Source: a virus. Taken from it: 64,000 nucleotides of DNA. The notes below the pieces were generated by a model. That model was not told the origin of the DNA, searched no databases, and worked only from the letters and a program-made list of their open reading frames with translations. Numbering within the stretch: the first letter of the stretch is position 1; each line of letters opens with the position of its first letter. Positions 3,494-62,572 of the stretch are shown in pieces. The stretch lies in the IMG/VR virus record IMGVR_UViG_3300036770_001537; one strand, 5' to 3'. Both the position numbers and the translations under genes were made by a program.

Positions 3494-4129
3494 TTACAAT
3501 TTTGAGATAGCAGAAAATCCCTTATGGTGTTTTCTTTTTCCAGTTGTAGTAGAATATAAATGCGACTGTGACAATTCATATATTCTACAAAATTCATTCA
3601 TATTAAAAATTTCTTCTTTGTGTCCATCCGGAAAAGTTATAATATACCATTTAGATTTACTGTTTCCTATGTTCTTTTTATGGTTAGAACTTCTCTCGGG
3701 TTTCTTTTTGTTTATATTCGCAGCAGATATTTTATCTTTTTGCTCTTGTGTCATAGGAGGTCTGCGTCTCATTCTCAAAGCATTAGATATTTTTTCTTTT
3801 GCTTTTTCTGAATTTGGTATACCTAATCTAGAAGGAGGTCTTAAGTCTACACCAACTCTATTCGTGATATGTTTTCCAAACATACTGTGACAAATTTTTA
3901 TCATATGATATTCTAGATCATATGCATATTTTTCATCATCTATATTTTCAACAATATATGTAACTCTAGGTTCGTGACCGAGCATTCTTATATTATTTAT
4001 TGTTGATAGTTTTTTCAAATTATTTTTATCTCTACCATTAATATGCGTATATGCTCTATCGCCCTTTCCTTTGCCGATGTAAAAAGGAATATTATTAATA
4101 GGGTCTACTAGTGCATATACATAATACAT
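3494..4129 (-). mobile_element. Free-standing GIY-YIG homing endonuclease (LEM-3-like catalytic domain plus NUMOD3-like repeats)
   Basis: YVY-x-L-x-DP...PFYIGKG-x3-R; C-terminal SEKAKEKIS and TQEQKDKIS repeats; inserted between gp21 and gp22. Confidence 0.85.
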
Positions 4130-12547: not shown

Positions 12548-15202
12548 TTATAGTTTATATCTATTACTTAACACTTCCCAATCAGTGTTATCAAATACGA
12601 ATCTATTGCCTTTACTGACTATCCACTTCTCCTTTGCATCTGCTTCAGGATCATCAAACTCATCAACTCCATTATCAATGATGCCAAATGGAACTAAGTC
12701 TTGATCCATGATATTCATCTGTTCTTGTTGCAATGCACTTCTAATATCATTATTAATATTTTCCTTAAAGTATCTTTGACCTGTTAACCAACCAAAGTGT
12801 ACCAGTGTCATTGCCAAATCATCATTATTACCTTCTTCTGCTTTGAATGTTTGTTTATCAGCAGAGAATGTCATTAGTTCTTGAATAGTATCATAGTCAT
12901 TGATAATTAACTTATCAGATTCAATCAATGTCTTTATATTAGCACAACCAATCATCTTGGTTTGTTTATTGGTCTTGAGACCATATGCAATCTTCTTTTT
13001 GAATCCGGGAGTATGTTGTTGACCATGCTTACCTTTTGTTTCAATCTTGATTAGATTATCATATGCTAGTTCATGATGAAGAATATCGGATACCTGTAAT
13101 CCAATAGAATTTATTTCTACAAGAACAAATGCATCATTATACATTTTTGCTGCTTGAAGAATTACAGTTGGAAACAATAATGGTGTTATCTTATTATTCT
13201 TATATTTCGCAACTTGTCTGTATGGAAACTCTGTAACATCTATAATTGAAAATGTTGAATAGTCTTGGTTTAGACCTTCTGCAACATCAACGGTCATTGT
13301 GTATGTATGATTAGGAATAGGTTCTTTGTAAATATGTAAACAATCATTCATATCTTTACGAATAGGTTCATGCCATACAAGTGAACGAAGTTTGACTGGA
13401 TGTATTAGTGTGTTCGTTGAACCAATAAATTCACATTCAAATTCTTGACGGAATTGATCTGGTGATGTGTTACGAATGGTTGTTTCTTTCCACTTCTCAT
13501 CACGACCAGGAACCATAGACCAGTGAATTTCAATTGGTTTATAAAGACTTTTTTCTTCGACTGCTTCAGTCCACATTTTATAGAATAGATTCATACCATT
13601 TGGAGTAGACACTATGATAACTTTGGTTGTGTTACCAGATGAAATGGTTGGGTATGTTGACATAAAGAATGCTTCGGCAATGTTATTGGGAACGAATGCA
13701 AACTCGTCAAGGAATATCATATTGAAAGCACGACCACGTACAGAAGAACCTGAAGTTGAGTCTGCTAATGCTTTTGATCCATTAGCCAATTCTATTGAAC
13801 CTTTATTCCACTCAATAACACCCTGCTTAAGAAAGAACGGTAGATATTCAAAAGCAAGTTGAAGTCTACTCATAATTTCACGGGCAGTAGAAGATTTGTT
13901 GGCAAGTATAGCAACATTTACATTTTCATTGAATAGAATATAGTGTAGTATATACGCGACAGATGTTGTAGTATTGTGTGTAGGAATTAGATTTTTTCCA
14001 ATTAGAAATAAGTGACTCTCATTGTCAACTTGTATACATTTTGTTGGAATGGATTCTGTCTCTACAATTTTTTTGATATATAGTCTTTTGTTTTTTTCTT
14101 TATAATTATGAGTGGATTGTCTGGATAATTTACGTGGTAATCTAAAGCAGTTGAATAAGTCTGTGGCAAATCTAACTATAAAATATAAATTCCCTTTTAC
14201 AGACTTAGGTCTTTTACGAGTTTTTACACCCAAAGACCTAAGAATAAAGATGAAGTCGTCAACAATGTTTTCATCTTTTTGACAGAACTCCATTTTTCCA
14301 CTGTTTGTGATGTAACCATCAGTGTCCATTAATCCTTGAATAATTTCTATTCTTTGATGTCTTGCCGAAAACTTGTAAATGTCTGGTATATGTTTATTAC
14401 CTTTTAGGCCATTTTCACGCAGACTTTTATGTAAGCCTTCAATATTGAAGTTGCCAACATTTACATTTTCTTTATATGGCCTAAAATTTGATATATTTGG
14501 TATGTTTGATTTATAGTGCTGATAATCGTCAATATGGCAAGTAATTCTACCATCACTTTTGTTGCCATCACCTAACCAGACACCCAAAACATATGGATCG
14601 ATTGGCAACTGTTTTTCTGGAAAATCTAAACACTCATTTAACTTAACATATAGGCCACTACTATTTTCTTTTTTTTCTGATAGTGTTTTGATTAGGTCGG
14701 GCATACCTAAAGTTTTAGACTTGTGTTTCCAATCGGAAGAGCAAACTTCCCATAGATGATCTTCATCACAAGTTATTGTTGTTCCATCATCAAATTGAAC
14801 ATCGTAACACTTTAGATTTTTTATTGGCGTTACTAGTTTTACTGTTGTCAATTTTCCGTCTGGACCATATATCTTATCGCCAACAGAAAGATTTCCAAAC
14901 TTGACAAATCCAGTATCAGTAAGGATATCTTCATTAATATCAATACCTTTACCAACCTGACGAGGTAATTTACAAATAGAGAATCTGTTATTATGGAATG
15001 TGTTAAGCATATCCTGTTGAAAGTCCCACATATCAAAGTGCATGAGACCTTTATCCACGTTAACAATCATCATATAATTGACAGCAAAATATACGGGATC
15101 ATTAGCACATTTTATGAACTCATCAACTTCATGCTGAGTAAAATTGTGCTGATAATCGTGTCTGGGAAGATTTGGATTGTTTTGATACCCAAAATTAGCC
15201 AT
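12548..15202 (-). CDS. gp17: Terminase large subunit, intein-containing (559 aa after splicing)
   Basis: Walker A LPRQVGK|TT split by an intein; FLDEFAF Walker B; IIVSTPNG; nuclease motifs VDVAEG and NDDLAM. Confidence 0.96.
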   Translation of the reverse strand: MANFGYQNNPNLPRHDYQHNFTQHEVDEFIKCANDPVYFAVNYMMIVNVDKGLMHFDMWDFQQDMLNTFHNNRFSICKLPRQVGKGIDINEDILTDTGFVKFGNLSVGDKIYGPDGKLTTVKLVTPIKNLKCYDVQFDDGTTITCDEDHLWEVCSSDWKHKSKTLGMPDLIKTLSEKKENSSGLYVKLNECLDFPEKQLPIDPYVLGVWLGDGNKSDGRITCHIDDYQHYKSNIPNISNFRPYKENVNVGNFNIEGLHKSLRENGLKGNKHIPDIYKFSARHQRIEIIQGLMDTDGYITNSGKMEFCQKDENIVDDFIFILRSLGVKTRKRPKSVKGNLYFIVRFATDLFNCFRLPRKLSRQSTHNYKEKNKRLYIKKIVETESIPTKCIQVDNESHLFLIGKNLIPTHNTTTSVAYILHYILFNENVNVAILANKSSTAREIMSRLQLAFEYLPFFLKQGVIEWNKGSIELANGSKALADSTSGSSVRGRAFNMIFLDEFAFVPNNIAEAFFMSTYPTISSGNTTKVIIVSTPNGMNLFYKMWTEAVEEKSLYKPIEIHWSMVPGRDEKWKETTIRNTSPDQFRQEFECEFIGSTNTLIHPVKLRSLVWHEPIRKDMNDCLHIYKEPIPNHTYTMTVDVAEGLNQDYSTFSIIDVTEFPYRQVAKYKNNKITPLLFPTVILQAAKMYNDAFVLVEINSIGLQVSDILHHELAYDNLIKIETKGKHGQQHTPGFKKKIAYGLKTNKQTKMIGCANIKTLIESDKLIINDYDTIQELMTFSADKQTFKAEEGNNDDLAMTLVHFGWLTGQRYFKENINNDIRSALQQEQMNIMDQDLVPFGIIDNGVDEFDDPEADAKEKWIVSKGNRFVFDNTDWEVLSNRYKL
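13973..14947 (-). mobile_element. Class-3-type intein (325 aa) with LAGLIDADG endonuclease
   Basis: Starts GIDINEDILT, block B TCDEDHLW, block F TKCIQVD, block G IPTHN|T; LAGLIDADG helices PYVLGVWLGDG and IIQGLMDTDG. Confidence 0.92.
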
Positions 15203-17511: not shown

Positions 17512-18020
17512 TAATCTTCCTTTTTCACATCAAAATTTCCAAATATTTTTAGATGAGGATGGTCCAATATCATTCTTTTCTCATCATTACTAATTTCTCT
17601 ATGCGGTGTTATTACCGTAGGTTTATGGGATTCATTACTTGGTGGCTTATGAATTGTGGCAGGAATAGCATCTTCAGGTATAGAATGCTCGGGTTTCTGG
17701 TCGTTAATCAATTTTCTTATTCCACCATGAGATATTTTTTCGCCCTTGAATACGACAACTCCGTTTGGATGAATCCATGCAGAATGTCTTGTTATTTCAC
17801 CTCTCTTAGATTTCAAATTTTCTATGTTTTCAGTATCTTCTTCATTACCTACCTCAACTTTTCCACTTTTTTTCACTTCAGTTGGTTTGGGATTATGAAC
17901 ATAACTTACTTCTGTCCCGTTTGGTCTTACTACGGCATGTGTACCAGAACCTGATTTAACTTTCATATATTTTGGTGGGCCTTTACCTGCTTCTTCTAAG
18001 TATTGCTTGAATGTTTTCAT
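17511..18020 (-). CDS. Putative internal head protein
   Basis: Likely start at 18020 ([24 protein letters not shown] overlap with the upstream endonuclease stop). Confidence 0.6.
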
Positions 18021-18622
18021 TTTTCTTCCTTGATTTTCTTCCAATATTCTCTCATTTTTTCCGAATGTTCGGGTCTTAATTTTCCTCTAAAATAATTTCC
18101 TTTTTTCGAATTTACTTCTTTAGAATATTTTTTGCCTAAGTTTGCCTCTGAGAGTTTTCTTCTTGTTTCTATACTGGGATTTCTTTTACTCTCTGATATT
18201 TTTTTCTTAGTATCTTCAGAATATTTTTTGCCTTTGTTCCATGCTATTTGAAGACCTTTCTTTCCCTTGTTCCAAGGAATCTGTCCTTTGTGCCCATCGC
18301 TTATTTTTTTCAACTGATTTTCATTAAATTTAAATCCAGATATCCCGTCGCCACCATCAGTTCTATTTCTTAAAATACCTGTTCCATTATCTTTACGCCC
18401 ATACCATCGTATCAACCTTCTCTCTAGTGCTAATGCTCCTATTTCAGTTAAATTTTCCTCAACGATAATAATGTGATTTTTATTTTTCGGTCTTCTTATT
18501 TTTTGAGAATTATGACTAGACCATGCTCGCTTGCCTTTACCTTTACCTATATAATATGGTGTATAGTCTTCTCTAATATAAGCATATACATAATATTCTA
18601 ATGTTGATTGATAAATAATCAT
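18017..18622 (-). mobile_element. Free-standing GIY-YIG homing endonuclease with NUMOD3 repeats
   Basis: YVYAY...[36 protein letters not shown] repeats; start re-placed at MIIYQ (GGAGG RBS). Confidence 0.88.
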
Positions 18623-18691
18623 GCTGATACCTCCAGTATAGGTGTTAGAATGGTCGGAGACGGCAATCTCGCGGGCCATATTTTATTTATC
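18610..18691 (-). ncRNA. Putative structured cis-regulatory leader, copy A
   Basis: Same stem layout and conserved CGC, TCTAA, GGAG and CAGC elements as 62494-62571; see findings. Confidence 0.6.
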
Positions 18692-19099
18692 TTCTTTCGA
18701 CTTTATCATTTTCAATAAGTCGGCAGTAGTTCCGCAGAAGACTGCCTTTTCTACTGTAATATCACCTTGAGGTGTCTTATTACTCACTTCTTTTAATTCT
18801 TTGGTAGTCTTTTGTAGAGCATATAAATCTTTGGTTGTTTCTGAAATTGTTTTCATCATTGTCGCAAATACTTCGTATGCCCGAGGACTTTCACTCTGTC
18901 TTGCCAACTCCTTCATATCTTCCATTGCCAGATTACCTTGTTGAATTAAGTTTCTAAAAGTTTGTCTGGCTAAGTTGTAATCTGCTTCAGCATCATTTGT
19001 CTGTGTAGGTTCAAGTATTTCCTGTCGCACAGGTTCAAGTATTTCCTGCTTTGGTGCTACTGGTTCAATACCCAAGGCATCTGTTAATTTTTTATTCAT
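18683..19099 (-). CDS. gp16: Terminase small subunit
   Basis: DYNLARQTFRNLI, ESPRAYEV, AVFCGTTADLLKM. Confidence 0.93.
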   Translation of the reverse strand: MNKKLTDALGIEPVAPKQEILEPVRQEILEPTQTNDAEADYNLARQTFRNLIQQGNLAMEDMKELARQSESPRAYEVFATMMKTISETTKDLYALQKTTKELKEVSNKTPQGDITVEKAVFCGTTADLLKMIKSKEDK

Positions 19100-21033: not shown

Positions 21034-21720
21034 TTATCCTTTTACTTTTCCTTTTGTCCAATCCTTACCAGGACAATCTTTACTTCTTTTATTTATCTTT
21101 CCATTGTTCCACCAGAAAGTTCCTCTCATCCACTCAGCATTATTTGGTGGTTTGCCTTTCATTGTAGCACTTGTTTTGGCGTTCATTTTCTTTTTGAGTT
21201 CAGGGTCGTGCTTCTTTCCATAAAAACCATTTTTATCACCAGTAAGTTTTTTACCATAGAAATAATTGTTTTTTCCAGAAATCAAATCACTTGCCTTATT
21301 TCTTCGTTCATCGGACCAAGATTCTCGTATTTTTTGTTTGGTTTCCTCTGTTCTTTTCTTGCCTGTGTTAGATTTGACCCTTTTAGCCTTTTCTTCTTCA
21401 GGTTGTTTTCTACCTTTATTTGCCGCCCAAGCGAGTTTTAGTGAAGTATTGGTTGTATATAAATTATAGTATTTTTTACCTAATTCTTCTTCTGATATCA
21501 AAGACAACCATTTATGTTCTTCTGATAGTAGATTATGTTTTTCTATATTTTTGCTCAAGATTCTTCTTTTGAAGTCATTAGGTCTTCTACGATAAGCATC
21601 ACGCATTCTATTAGAAGAACAAATATAACCGTCATTTAATGTTCCCCAATGGCAACCAATATAGTACATCTTACGCTTCTTATCAAACCAGATATAAATA
21701 AAACCTTCTTTTTCCATCAT
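21034..21720 (-). mobile_element. Free-standing GIY-YIG (Seg-like) homing endonuclease with NUMOD3 repeats
   Basis: GFIYIW...YYIGCH...DGYICSS, YYNL, TEETKQKI, NGFYGKKH; inserted between gp13 and gp14. Confidence 0.88.
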
Positions 21721-21755
21721 AACCTCCTATGACAATGGTTATGATTATATTTATA
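21716..21755 (-). promoter_or_regulatory. Late promoter plus RBS-sequestering hairpin for the Seg-like endonuclease
   Basis: TATAAATA (21748-21755), then ATCATAACC...GGTTATGAT, a 9-bp stem covering the end of GGAGG and the ATG. Confidence 0.7.
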
Positions 21756-21768
21756 TAAAACGAGTGTG

Positions 21769-22512
21769 TCACCCTAGATAAAATTGTGGTGGTTCTTCAT
21801 GAGTATCACGAATCAATTGCTCAATCTCTTGAATTTCTTGAATTGCCTCATTGAAAATCTGTTGTCCATTCATCTGGATTCCACCGGGTAACTGCATACC
21901 CTGAAACTTCTTCATATTGTTTCCCCACTGTCTTTTGATATATGCAGTGGTCAGTCTTTTTAGTAGTCTATCGTTCCAAACATCGGTGTAATTATTTGGA
22001 TCTAGGATAATATACCCTTCAATGATAATATATTCACCGGCTTCAATGTCATTATTCCAGTCCCAATCCAAATATAACTTATTGGAATGTCTGTTAAATC
22101 TAATTGGAATCTCACCGGAGAACAACATATCAAGTGTTCTGATGTGTTGCTGAGTTAGGACATAATTCACATATGATGTTGAAGTGAAGTCATATAGTTC
22201 GTGTAATCTAAGTTGGTATCTTAGATCGAACATATTTACAGATGCATTTGTTGATCCTACTGGAAATATTCTAGTTACACCAATAATGTTGTCTGTAATA
22301 GGAATATATTGATTAGTCTTATCCTCAGCCGTGACTTGATGCTTGAGATACCATCTTTCAACAGCATCAAAATGAAAGTCCTGAAAGTATTGTAATGCAG
22401 CATCTACAGCATCATCAACTTGGTCATCATCCACATTAATTTCTAATACAGGATGACCAAGTTGACGAAGACACCAGTCTATATGTTGTTGCCTAGTGGT
22501 AGGTATAGCCAT
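21769..22512 (-). CDS. gp13: Neck protein
   Basis: CLRQLGHPVLEINVDDDQ, IKRQWGNNMKKFQGMQLPGG. Confidence 0.95.
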   Translation of the reverse strand: MAIPTTRQQHIDWCLRQLGHPVLEINVDDDQVDDAVDAALQYFQDFHFDAVERWYLKHQVTAEDKTNQYIPITDNIIGVTRIFPVGSTNASVNMFDLRYQLRLHELYDFTSTSYVNYVLTQQHIRTLDMLFSGEIPIRFNRHSNKLYLDWDWNNDIEAGEYIIIEGYIILDPNNYTDVWNDRLLKRLTTAYIKRQWGNNMKKFQGMQLPGGIQMNGQQIFNEAIQEIQEIEQLIRDTHEEPPQFYLG

Positions 22513-57789: not shown

Positions 57790-58140
57790 GTACCCGACTG
57801 ATATATTCTGTTTCGAGGTCAATCAGTAAACCCAATGAGATTAAGCCGCTAGGCGTGTCTCAAATGGAGCATTATCGTTTGCTGCCTTTACGTTGTTTGG
57901 ACTAATTTTCGGTCGTTCCTTACCGGTATCTCCACTTTCTCCAATACGTCTGTCGATCCTATTTCGCCCCCATCAAAGATACACTGTCTGCACCATGCAT
58001 CAGCTCTCTCTTTAATGTTTTAGATATCATATTACATCAAGAGTGTTTTGCCTTAAAACTAAACTAATCAGTGTATCTGTGGTGGAGGCGTTGGGTACTG
58101 CCCCCAAGTCCAGTCCGTTCTTCAATTGCTTCAACGATAC
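57790..58140 (-). ncRNA. ssrA: Circularly permuted (two-piece) tmRNA
   Basis: Acceptor piece ends GGGGGCAGTACCCAACGCCTCCACCA (3' end at 58080). After a 108-nt spacer the coding piece starts GGGGGCGAAATAGGATCGAC at 57971. Stem has a G3:U pair. Tag ANDNAPFETRLAA* at 57882-57841. Outer ends approximate. Confidence 0.93.
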
Positions 58141-58145
58141 AGTCT

Positions 58146-58176
58146 TATTTATACCACACCCACACCAGGAAGTCAA
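58146..58176 (-). promoter_or_regulatory. Composite sigma70/late promoter for the tmRNA
   Basis: TTGACT-17bp-TATAAA with an extended TG; the -10 is part of TATAAATA. Confidence 0.75.
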
Positions 58177-58349
58177 GCCCTTTTTCTCTTTTTGACTCTC
58201 TTTTTATATTCAGGAAAACTCATCAGATATTGAAATTTGCTTGAAATATATTCTTCATACAACTTCTGATTATTTTTATAATGGTGAATGATAGATTTTG
58301 TTTTGGCTTTAGATACACTTTTGCTCGTAGTATTATCATAGCCACCCAT
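58173..58349 (-). CDS. Small basic hypothetical protein
   Basis: Likely start MGGYDN at 58349, just after the HAD gene stop. Confidence 0.45.
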   Translation of the reverse strand: MGGYDNTTSKSVSKAKTKSIIHHYKNNQKLYEEYISSKFQYLMSFPEYKKRVKKRKRA

Positions 58350-61980: not shown

Positions 61981-62505
61981 TTAAATTTCCGTTTTATTAT
62001 GCTTTTGCAGATGCTGGTTTAAATTACCTTTGCCTCTACACAATTTACCGCAGACATTACATTCATATTTAGGAACTTTGTATTGTGCAATTCTATCCAA
62101 ATCTTTTTCTTCGTCTGTTTTGATACGACCTTTATTCCAAGGAATCTGTCCTATGTGACTCGTCCTCATTTTCTCTTTAGATTCCTTTGTAAATTTATAA
62201 CCAGTTAGTGGATGTCCTTTTGTTTTAAATCTTTTCTTTTGACTGATACCTATAGTTTTTCTGGTTTCATCACTTATAATTCTATTTTTCATATAGAGTC
62301 TTTGTACTTCTTTTATGGCTTCGGCAGAACTAATTTGACCAGATAGCATTTGCCAAGCAATTTTATCTTGCCAGTGACCTAAGTCCTCCCATAATTGCTT
62401 ATGTAAAGCAGCATGTTCTTCTACAGTAACAGTGACGAGATTAGATGGGTCATCCGATCCACCCATATGTTTTGGTATGATATGGTGCTTGTGATAAATA
62501 GTCAT
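61981..62505 (-). mobile_element. Free-standing HNH homing endonuclease (NUMOD3 repeats, C-terminal C2H2 finger)
   Basis: HHIIPKHMGGSDDPSNLV...EEH...H, SDETRKTI, PWNKG, CNVC...H...H; start re-placed at MTIY. Confidence 0.88.
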
Positions 62506-62572
62506 GGCTGGTGCTCCTTTCAGCATTAGAGTGGTTGGATGCTGGTAACATCGCGAACCACAACTATTTATA
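62494..62572 (-). ncRNA. Putative structured cis-regulatory leader, copy B, with late promoter (62565-62572)
   Basis: Same architecture as 18610-18691; see findings. Confidence 0.6.

Follow-up and report, generated by a model that had tools for sequence, protein, structure and literature searches.

A conserved two-hairpin element at the start of homing-endonuclease genes in T4-like phages, with a fold placed on the opposite strand and a predicted small antisense RNA

Two free-standing homing-endonuclease genes in a 64,000-nucleotide (nt) stretch of viral DNA (IMG/VR record IMGVR_UViG_3300036770_001537; this whole stretch is hereafter the window) encode unrelated proteins, and each is preceded by a copy of the same structured element, copy A at 18610-18691 and copy B at 62494-62572, both on the minus strand. 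The family to which both copies belong has hundreds of members and no entry in Rfam; it is joined to unrelated nucleases, and its fold lies opposite the gene. We regard it as practically certain that this is a real conserved structured element tied to homing-endonuclease genes. We propose that it is a control cassette in which two convergent late-promoter-type boxes would serve the nuclease mRNA on one strand and a small antisense RNA on the other.

An element shared by unrelated homing endonucleases

The sequence-only reading that drew attention to the element had described a structured leader RNA with stems P1, P2, and P3, a CGC/C internal loop, a TCTAA linker, a hairpin containing the Shine-Dalgarno (SD) sequence, and CAGC before the ATG. 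Its transcriptions of both copies proved exact, letter for letter. A motif pattern made from the two copies matches the window twice, at copies A and B, with 0 matches expected (100 shuffles), and model R1, a covariance model from 78 family members, scores them at 80.7 and 73.6 bits, the next best place in the window reaching 15.7. Chance similarity of the two copies is ruled out by the shuffles, the model scores, and the wider family matches. CAGCATG as a general start-codon context is likewise ruled out, with 2 occurrences in the window versus 4.4 expected.

Model R1 found 221 matches in 212 IMG/VR viral loci (E<=0.001), corresponding to about 150 distinct copies; the two-copy pattern found 38 IMG/VR loci, about 33 of them with the whole layout. 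Two more scans each left one half of the element unconstrained. The scan for the 3' half only (TCTAA...CAGC..ATGnnTATTTAT) matched at least 120 contigs, and a bulged hairpin lies upstream in nearly all the matches listed, though the pattern did not demand one. The scan for the 5' half only matched 84 contigs, most with a CUA-type linker, an SD hairpin, and CAG before the ATG. Among 100 prokaryote-genome loci matching the 3' pattern, model R1 recognized 1 true module, on a 2.2-kb contig in a metagenome-assembled genome bin.

A single cultured phage, Rhizobium phage RHph_I1_18, is a member of the family. Megablast and blastn searches among cultured phages returned no close relative except its diverged copy (MN988519, 80288-80378; L214:3001-3091), which scores 39.8 bits and differs by a longer P2, a CCTAG linker, and a TTG start followed by ACT ATT TAT. 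The divergent gene adjoining this copy is annotated "NAD synthetase" (phrog_447), and phrog_447 also matches 11 module-linked endonucleases; the label may be a misnomer for a nuclease-like domain. Model R1 finds no module in the cyanophages with homologous nucleases (S-SRM01, B23, S-N03, MC09, and S-CREM2) or in S-PM2. In Rfam 15, the window gives only a permuted transfer-messenger RNA (tmRNA) at gathering thresholds, and four member loci give 0 matches on either strand at E<=1. A known RNA family is ruled out by these scans of both strands; the sequence-only reading, too, could match the element to no family.

Nearly all copies directly precede GIY-YIG, HNH, or other homing-endonuclease genes of T4-like phages. 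The downstream open reading frames (ORFs) have a median length of 203 amino acids (aa); 89 of the 136 distinct ones match phrog_314 ("homing endonuclease"), 45 match phrog_655, and ten to fifteen match HNH PHROGs, and their Pfam domains include NUMOD3, GIY-YIG, SegE, HNH, and I-TevI DNA-binding. The covariance-model search and the tabulation of downstream genes, both suggested by the sequence-only reading, thus returned many homologues in phage loci, an association with endonuclease genes in nearly all of them, and no counterpart in Rfam. Its description of the leader as a portable module also holds, since a conserved, covarying element is fused to unrelated homing endonucleases; in the window itself, the protein after copy A carries GIY-YIG and NUMOD3 domains and that after copy B an HNH domain and a C2H2 zinc finger, and the two are non-homologous, as stated. 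Two further endonuclease-like genes in the window (3494-4129 and 21034-21720) have no module, so that the cassette belongs to some endonucleases and not to all.

Strand of the conserved fold

In the 78-sequence alignment, stems P1, P2, and P3 are paired in 90.3% of cells, and compensatory changes occur at 15 of their 16 pairs. Double-change cells number 333, versus 109 in shuffles, and sliding the partner by 1 to 3 columns lowers the pairing to 33-46%. The covariation that had been noted between two copies is therefore found far beyond them. The mismatches reveal a strong asymmetry between the strands, also when counted with a strand-symmetric filter: the non-Watson-Crick helix cells on the mRNA strand comprise about 150 A·C versus 19 G·U. 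P1 together with its purine-pyrimidine (R:Y) pair holds 68 A·C and 2 G·U, and the SD hairpin 74 and 4; P2 holds 9 and 13, its G·U lying mostly beside the loop. Real RNA helices gather G·U and not A·C. Each A·C of the mRNA strand corresponds to a G·U wobble in its complement, and the asymmetry thus indicates a helix selected on the opposite strand.

Read in the antisense direction, the structure consists of two hairpins, H1 and H2, with 19 pairs, of which 16 show compensatory change; 98.4% of cells have standard pairing (99.8% are paired in H2), and the slid controls fall to 33-47%. Of 149 copies, 143 have their lower minimum free energy on the antisense strand, the mean difference being 5.2 kcal/mol, and 147 are predicted to form the same two-hairpin fold. 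For copy A, the antisense strand folds at -20.4 kcal/mol over 72 nt and the sense core at -11.3 over 61 nt; for copy B, the values are -20.1 over 71 nt and -16.3 over 58 nt. The wobble asymmetry, the pairing on the antisense strand, and the stability of the antisense fold all speak against the mRNA-leader structure that the sequence-only reading had drawn. Judged from the sequences, the conserved fold very probably lies on the antisense strand. In functional terms, the wobble asymmetry can also be read as one set of positions that stabilizes the antisense fold while weakening the mRNA leader and leaving it more open.

This change of strand gives a different meaning to the conserved letters. 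Antisense CUG pairs with UAG (C-G, U-A, and G·U) in 78 of 78 sequences and forms the base of H1. TCTAA and CAGC, which had been assigned to a ligand- or protein-binding core, are therefore the two strands of the lower stem of antisense H1. Inspection revealed no conserved pseudoknots of TCTAA or CAGC with the loops; on the antisense strand, the two motifs are each other's pairing partners. What had been the "CGC/C internal loop" is then an R:Y pair (G-C in 58, G·U in 13, and A-U in 7 sequences) between two invariant bulged G. Where copies were gathered with no constraint on this part, the loop reads C-R-C opposite Y; among the matches listed, it is CGC in 66/106 and CAC in 39/106, and Y is C in 91 and U in 15. 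Hence, of the letters that had been called invariant, CAG before the ATG and the CUA of the linker are so across the family, whereas the CGC loop varies and the full TCTAA occurs in about 83% of copies.

Convergent promoter boxes and a predicted antisense RNA

The T4-type late-promoter box that had been recognized in the element is well supported. Upstream of the endonuclease ORF, copy B carries the exact TATAAATA and copy A carries GATAAATA, and of 98 copies collected with no demand for TAAATA, 90 have it upstream of P1. In the window, TATAAATA occurs 21 times, versus 8.5 expected, and 18 of the 21 are on the gene strand. The 9-bp inverted repeat between the promoter region and codons 2-4 is exact in both window copies, as had been reported, but the family as a whole conserves only a 7-bp core, ATAAATA/TATTTAT; the covariation of the flanks is weak, with one position covarying in 36% of cases versus 26% in shuffles (p about 0.004). 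The translation lock that had been built on this repeat fares less well: the long-range promoter/codon helix has a median predicted probability of 0.01 across the family and is clear in copy B only (0.66, against 0.01 in copy A). Two convergent late-promoter boxes account better for the inverted repeat.

The codons of the nuclease start point in the same direction. In the 34 I-Y copies that were found without requiring a codon-embedded box, the third base of codon 2 is T in 34/34 (background 33%), Ile is ATT in 33/34 (background 42%), and Tyr is TAT in 30/34 (background 70%), while residue 2 takes nine different amino acids. Codons 2-4 are, as far as these sequences tell, fixed at the nucleotide level as TATTTAT. 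A peptide-level reason for the M-x-I-Y start, namely the GIY motif, is ruled out because the codons are fixed while residue 2 varies and because HNH and other non-GIY proteins carry M-x-I-Y as well. The sequence-only reading was thus right that the element imposes this start, and it does so at the nucleotide level; the helix by which it explained the start is better read as an opposite-strand box. Indeed, TATTTAT on the opposite strand is ATAAATA, the core of the late-promoter box, and this backward box lies 6 nt from the first H1 pair in 93 of 125 copies. The window holds 33 ATAAATA on the gene strand and 8 on the other strand; of these 8, 2 are the backward boxes of the copies and 1 precedes a plus-strand gene block. 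At the sequence level, a candidate opposite-strand promoter is present at the 5' end of the nuclease gene.

We propose that the element is a portable control cassette of ~85 to 90 bp that travels with free-standing homing-endonuclease genes of T4-like phages. Its two convergent late-promoter-type boxes (nATAAATA) would stand about 70 bp apart, the upstream box driving the nuclease mRNA and the downstream box, inside nuclease codons 2-4, pointing backwards; a box written into these codons would explain the M-x-I-Y start. The spacing of T4-like late promoters would put the start at the G just before H1. An antisense RNA of ~65 to 70 nt would thus begin at the G opposite the C of CAGC and fold into H1, of 8-9 bp, with the invariant C-G, U-A, and G·U at its base and an anti-SD loop (by geometry, the loop is the complement of the SD), and H2, composed of a 6-bp stem, the R:Y pair with its two invariant bulged G, and a further 4-5 bp. 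The 3' end of the RNA would be a U-rich tail complementary to the upstream box. Such an RNA would be fully complementary to the 5' untranslated region (UTR), the SD, and the AUG of the nuclease mRNA, so that its pairing with the mRNA would prevent initiation, produce a substrate for RNase III, or both, and the nuclease would be kept low.

In copy A, the late-promoter-like box GATAAATAA occupies 18683-18691 on the minus strand, that of the nuclease. The final TAA of this box doubles as the stop codon of the small-terminase gene (18683-19099, assigned from the ORF list and a PHROG match to terminase small subunit), which ends ...GAT AAA TAA, and on the plus strand the same bases would provide the U-rich tail of the antisense RNA. 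This predicted RNA of ~68 nt (18623-18690, plus strand), for which its own fold, the family-wide two-hairpin fold, and the wobble asymmetry argue, would start at G 18623 and comprise H1 (18624-18648, with the anti-SD CCUCC in its loop), linker A (18649), the bulged H2 (18650-18679), and the U-rich tail (18680-18690). The backward-facing ATAAATA (18611-18617, plus strand) is the reverse complement of codons 2-4 (A-TT ATT TAT) of the putative target, a free-standing GIY-YIG/NUMOD3 homing endonuclease of 201 aa that starts M-I-I-Y (18017-18622, minus strand); copy A sits between this gene and the small-terminase gene.

Copy B carries the exact T4-type late-promoter box TATAAATA at 62565-62572 on the minus (nuclease) strand. 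The predicted RNA of ~67 nt (62506-62572, plus strand), suggested by the antisense fold and the family evidence, would start at G 62506 and contain H1 (62508-62529, loop CUCCUUUC), linker A (62530), the bulged H2 (62531-62561), and the tail (62562-62572). Here, the backward-facing ATAAATA (62494-62500, plus strand) is the reverse complement of codons 2-4 (AC-T ATT TAT) of a free-standing HNH homing endonuclease with a C-terminal C2H2 zinc finger (61981-62505, minus strand; 174 aa; start M-T-I-Y). An 87-aa PHROG "transcriptional regulator" gene flanks copy B on its other side, and phoH comes next, directly downstream of the HNH gene.

Transcription from the backward box, termination at H2, and repression are steps that we infer. 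H2 is rich in G+C, the tail has a mean of 6.5 U in 12 nt, and some copies without an upstream TAAATA keep AUUUUU-type tails. Many divergent neighbor genes have their own TTGACA...TATAAT promoter just past the tail, which fits termination at H2. Several observations weigh against the proposal. Among copies collected with no demand for the backward box, only about 60% have it as an exact heptamer, a simple consensus terminator scan flagged nothing at either window copy, and H2 is bulged and followed by a tail that begins AC or AU instead of a clean run of U. Some copies have an opposite-strand ORF whose start lies as little as 17-28 nt past H2; there, H2 could be no efficient terminator, and the RNA would be the leader of that gene. 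Furthermore, mirror-image hairpins inevitably occur in the mRNA leader, and a sense-strand role may coexist. Taking both sides together, we favor, with some reserve, a transcribed antisense RNA that represses the nuclease. The complications of neighbor orientation and the null terminator scan lead us to keep three other explanations.

The explanation given by the sequence-only reading is an mRNA-leader riboregulator. Read-through RNA would pair the promoter region with codons 2-4 and mask the ribosome site, late transcripts starting inside the repeat would escape this lock, as in the T4 I-TevI/segB/Aeh1 mobE type, and the bulged hairpin would be a binding core. It has a precedent in T4 (reviewed in PMC2988022), and similar hairpins are described upstream of metagenomic endonucleases (PMC2677866). 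The exact 9-bp repeat of both window copies and the covarying flank position also favor it, as does copy B, whose initiation region is more accessible in the late transcript (0.73, up from 0.34); copy A shows no such gain, and the long-range helix is rarely predicted elsewhere. The lock is unlikely, in our opinion, since the wobble asymmetry is the opposite of what a sense-strand structure should show, the sense fold is about 5 kcal/mol weaker, and mononucleotide shuffles of the A/T-rich arm often yield runs of 6-7 pairs. Moreover, many copies have the stop codon of the upstream gene inside the 5' arm, where terminating ribosomes would open the lock.

The opposite-strand structure may instead serve the neighbor gene. 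In that case, the neighbor would receive a substitute late promoter in the backward box, and the hairpins would stabilize or insulate its 5' end, making the cassette non-polar. Among 111 copies, the nuclease gene runs opposite to both neighbors in 50 and in the same direction as both in 24, some of the opposite-strand ORFs that begin shortly after H2 have an SD-like AAGGA, and T4 endonuclease genes embed promoters for downstream genes (PMC2988022). We find this improbable: in both window copies and about a quarter of all copies the neighbors are co-oriented with the nuclease gene, leaving no gene for the antisense RNA to serve, many divergent neighbors have a sigma-70-like promoter of their own after the tail, and the module is identical in co-oriented and divergent settings. 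Less probable still, to the point of being remote, is a fold in single-stranded bottom-strand DNA, acting as a structure-specific site in replication, recombination, or homing. A strand-specific fold with invariant extrahelical bases would be reminiscent of integron attC sites, and DNA hairpins tolerate G·T wobbles too. Yet the fixed-spacing promoter-type box, the U-rich tail, and the full overlap with the SD and AUG are RNA signals, and the structure is found at one end of the cassette only. Homing is double-strand-break repair, for which no cis site in the donor is required.

No selfish genes are commoner in large phages than those for homing endonucleases, whose restraint is known for only a few T4 genes. 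The broadest form of the antisense proposal is that unrelated homing endonucleases of T4-like phages carry a self-contained, horizontally shuffled "governor" made of convergent promoters and an ~68-nt antisense RNA. The invariant features of this RNA, namely the third H1 pair, a G·U, and the two bulged G in H2, would be the recognition site of a shared phage or host factor, and small-RNA control would then be general. We hold this broad form as tentative, its chances being a little below even. If true, antisense control, familiar from transposons and toxin genes, would also be a standard accessory of homing endonucleases, small-RNA control would be a general and previously unrecognized layer of homing-endonuclease biology, and the odd M-x-I-Y start common to unrelated proteins would be explained as a promoter written into codons. 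The element could also serve to mark free-standing endonuclease genes and their true start codons in the annotation of uncultured T4-like phages and, experimentally, as a compact module for late-phase expression and silencing.

Genomic setting and related systems

The genes next to the cassettes belong to the T4-type core and include the T4-type large terminase, PhoH, UvsY, gp46/47-like, and neck proteins. Across the family, the stop codon of the upstream gene often lies within the promoter box, and the 3' end of the nuclease gene often overlaps the next gene. This arrangement was described by Dassa et al. for metagenomic "fractured genes" (PMC2677866). Many module-bearing endonuclease genes stand head-to-head with genes that have TTGACA-17-TATAAT promoters (for example, at loci L005, L060, L066, L110, and L112), which means that late-promoter endonuclease cassettes were inserted backwards beside early transcription units.

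The window is DNA of a T4-like myovirus (it encodes a major head protein, portal, sheath, sheath stabilizer, Hc2, and small terminase), and no close cultured phage was found for it at the DNA level. A phage-encoded permuted tmRNA of alphaproteobacterial type lies at 57797-58180 on the minus strand (RF04321, 104.7 bits; RF01849, 91.1 bits). It hints at an alphaproteobacterial host, which would fit the Rhizobium host of the single cultured phage that bears the module. In the large-terminase ORF (12548-15202, minus strand; 884 aa), the T4-type Terminase_6N domain begins only at residue 411, and residues 285-334 match LAGLIDADG_3; the N-terminal part of TerL looks like it carries an intein or endonuclease insertion.

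Of the two module-free endonuclease-like genes, the one at 21034-21800 (minus strand; 228 aa), with a NUMOD3 domain, has an exact TATAAATA at 21748-21755 followed by a simple 7-bp hairpin, CAUAACC/GGUUAUG, that covers AGGAGG and the AUG, as in the classic T4 mask. Its GFIY codons create an opposite-strand ATAAATA at 21694-21700, which suggests a possible origin of backward promoter boxes in the IY codons of GIY-YIG genes. The other, at 3494-4129 (minus strand; 211 aa), has GIY-YIG and I-HmuI NUMOD-like domains; upstream of it there is no module and no obvious hairpin, and it starts inside the end of the preceding ORF, its ATG falling within ...TTTAATATG.

Close precedents are the translational masks of the T-even type, in which a late promoter is placed in a hairpin (I-TevI, I-TevII, I-TevIII, segB, and Aeh1 mobE; PMC2988022). 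The cassette shares with them a TATAAATA late promoter immediately before a homing-endonuclease gene, a repeat in inverted orientation that involves the promoter region and the translation start, and the presumed effect of keeping a selfish nuclease low or late. The T-even masks are single, simple mRNA hairpins that hide the SD, whereas the present element has two covarying hairpins with wobbles that place them on the opposite strand, a second, backward-facing box in codons 2-4, and an architecture conserved across unrelated nucleases. Dassa et al. (2009; PMC2677866) reported that 15 of 16 endonuclease 5' UTRs have hairpins, TATAAATA being present in 10 of these, and that two conserved motifs are mutually complementary. 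As in the present family, the endonuclease genes there run at their 3' ends into the following gene. The authors interpreted the hairpins as mRNA structures of the Aeh1 mobE type, and the text consulted describes no covariation, strand analysis, or antisense promoter. Compared by description only, they may be members of the present family.

Among mobile elements, IS10/Tn10 encodes RNA-OUT, a structured cis-antisense RNA of ~70 nt directed against RNA-IN, whose promoter is convergent with that of the transposase gene. The RNA proposed here would resemble RNA-OUT in being complementary to the 5' end and ribosome site of its target mRNA, in having a bulged stem, and in restraining a selfish DNA-cutting enzyme. 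It differs in that RNA-OUT targets a transposase, uses host sigma-70 promoters, and forms one hairpin; there is no sequence or structural homology, and no match in Rfam. In phage P22, the sar RNA of 68/69 nt is antisense to the ant ribosome site. It is likewise a small phage antisense RNA that starts just inside its target gene and covers the ribosome-binding site; unlike the present element, sar is found at a single locus, targets an antirepressor, is not portable, and lacks a pair of late promoters. The sar RNA is listed in PMC12197685.

An antisense RNA at a homing-endonuclease gene has also been detected in a T4-like phage: CfrI of cyanophage S-PM2 crosses the start of such a gene (Millard et al. 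2010, as cited in PMC2984593) and is annotated at 136544-136741 in NC_006820. Like the RNA predicted here, CfrI spans the 5' end of a free-standing homing-endonuclease gene (F-CphI); unlike it, CfrI measures about 200-225 nt, starts 58 nt inside the ORF, and extends into psbA. Since model R1 finds 0 matches in the whole S-PM2 record and the CfrI region reads differently, CfrI is an analogue and not a member of the family.

Another arrangement occurs before homologous GIY-YIG genes of cyanophages S-SRM01 (L337:455-585) and MC09 (L340:490-585), in the order late box, ~16-nt arm, plain terminator hairpin with a T run, second late box, arm complementary to the first, and ATG. It shares with the present cassette two late-promoter boxes and a short predicted RNA complementary to the nuclease leader. 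There, however, the boxes are co-directional, the small RNA is on the same strand and upstream, the terminator is plain, the arms are complementary, and no cis-antisense overlap exists. This appears to be an analogous small-RNA design built another way, and a differently built cassette on related nucleases supports the generality of small-RNA control. By analogy with these systems, the logic proposed here would join two known ideas, the late-promoter/hairpin masks of T-even phages and the cis-antisense control of mobile-element genes.

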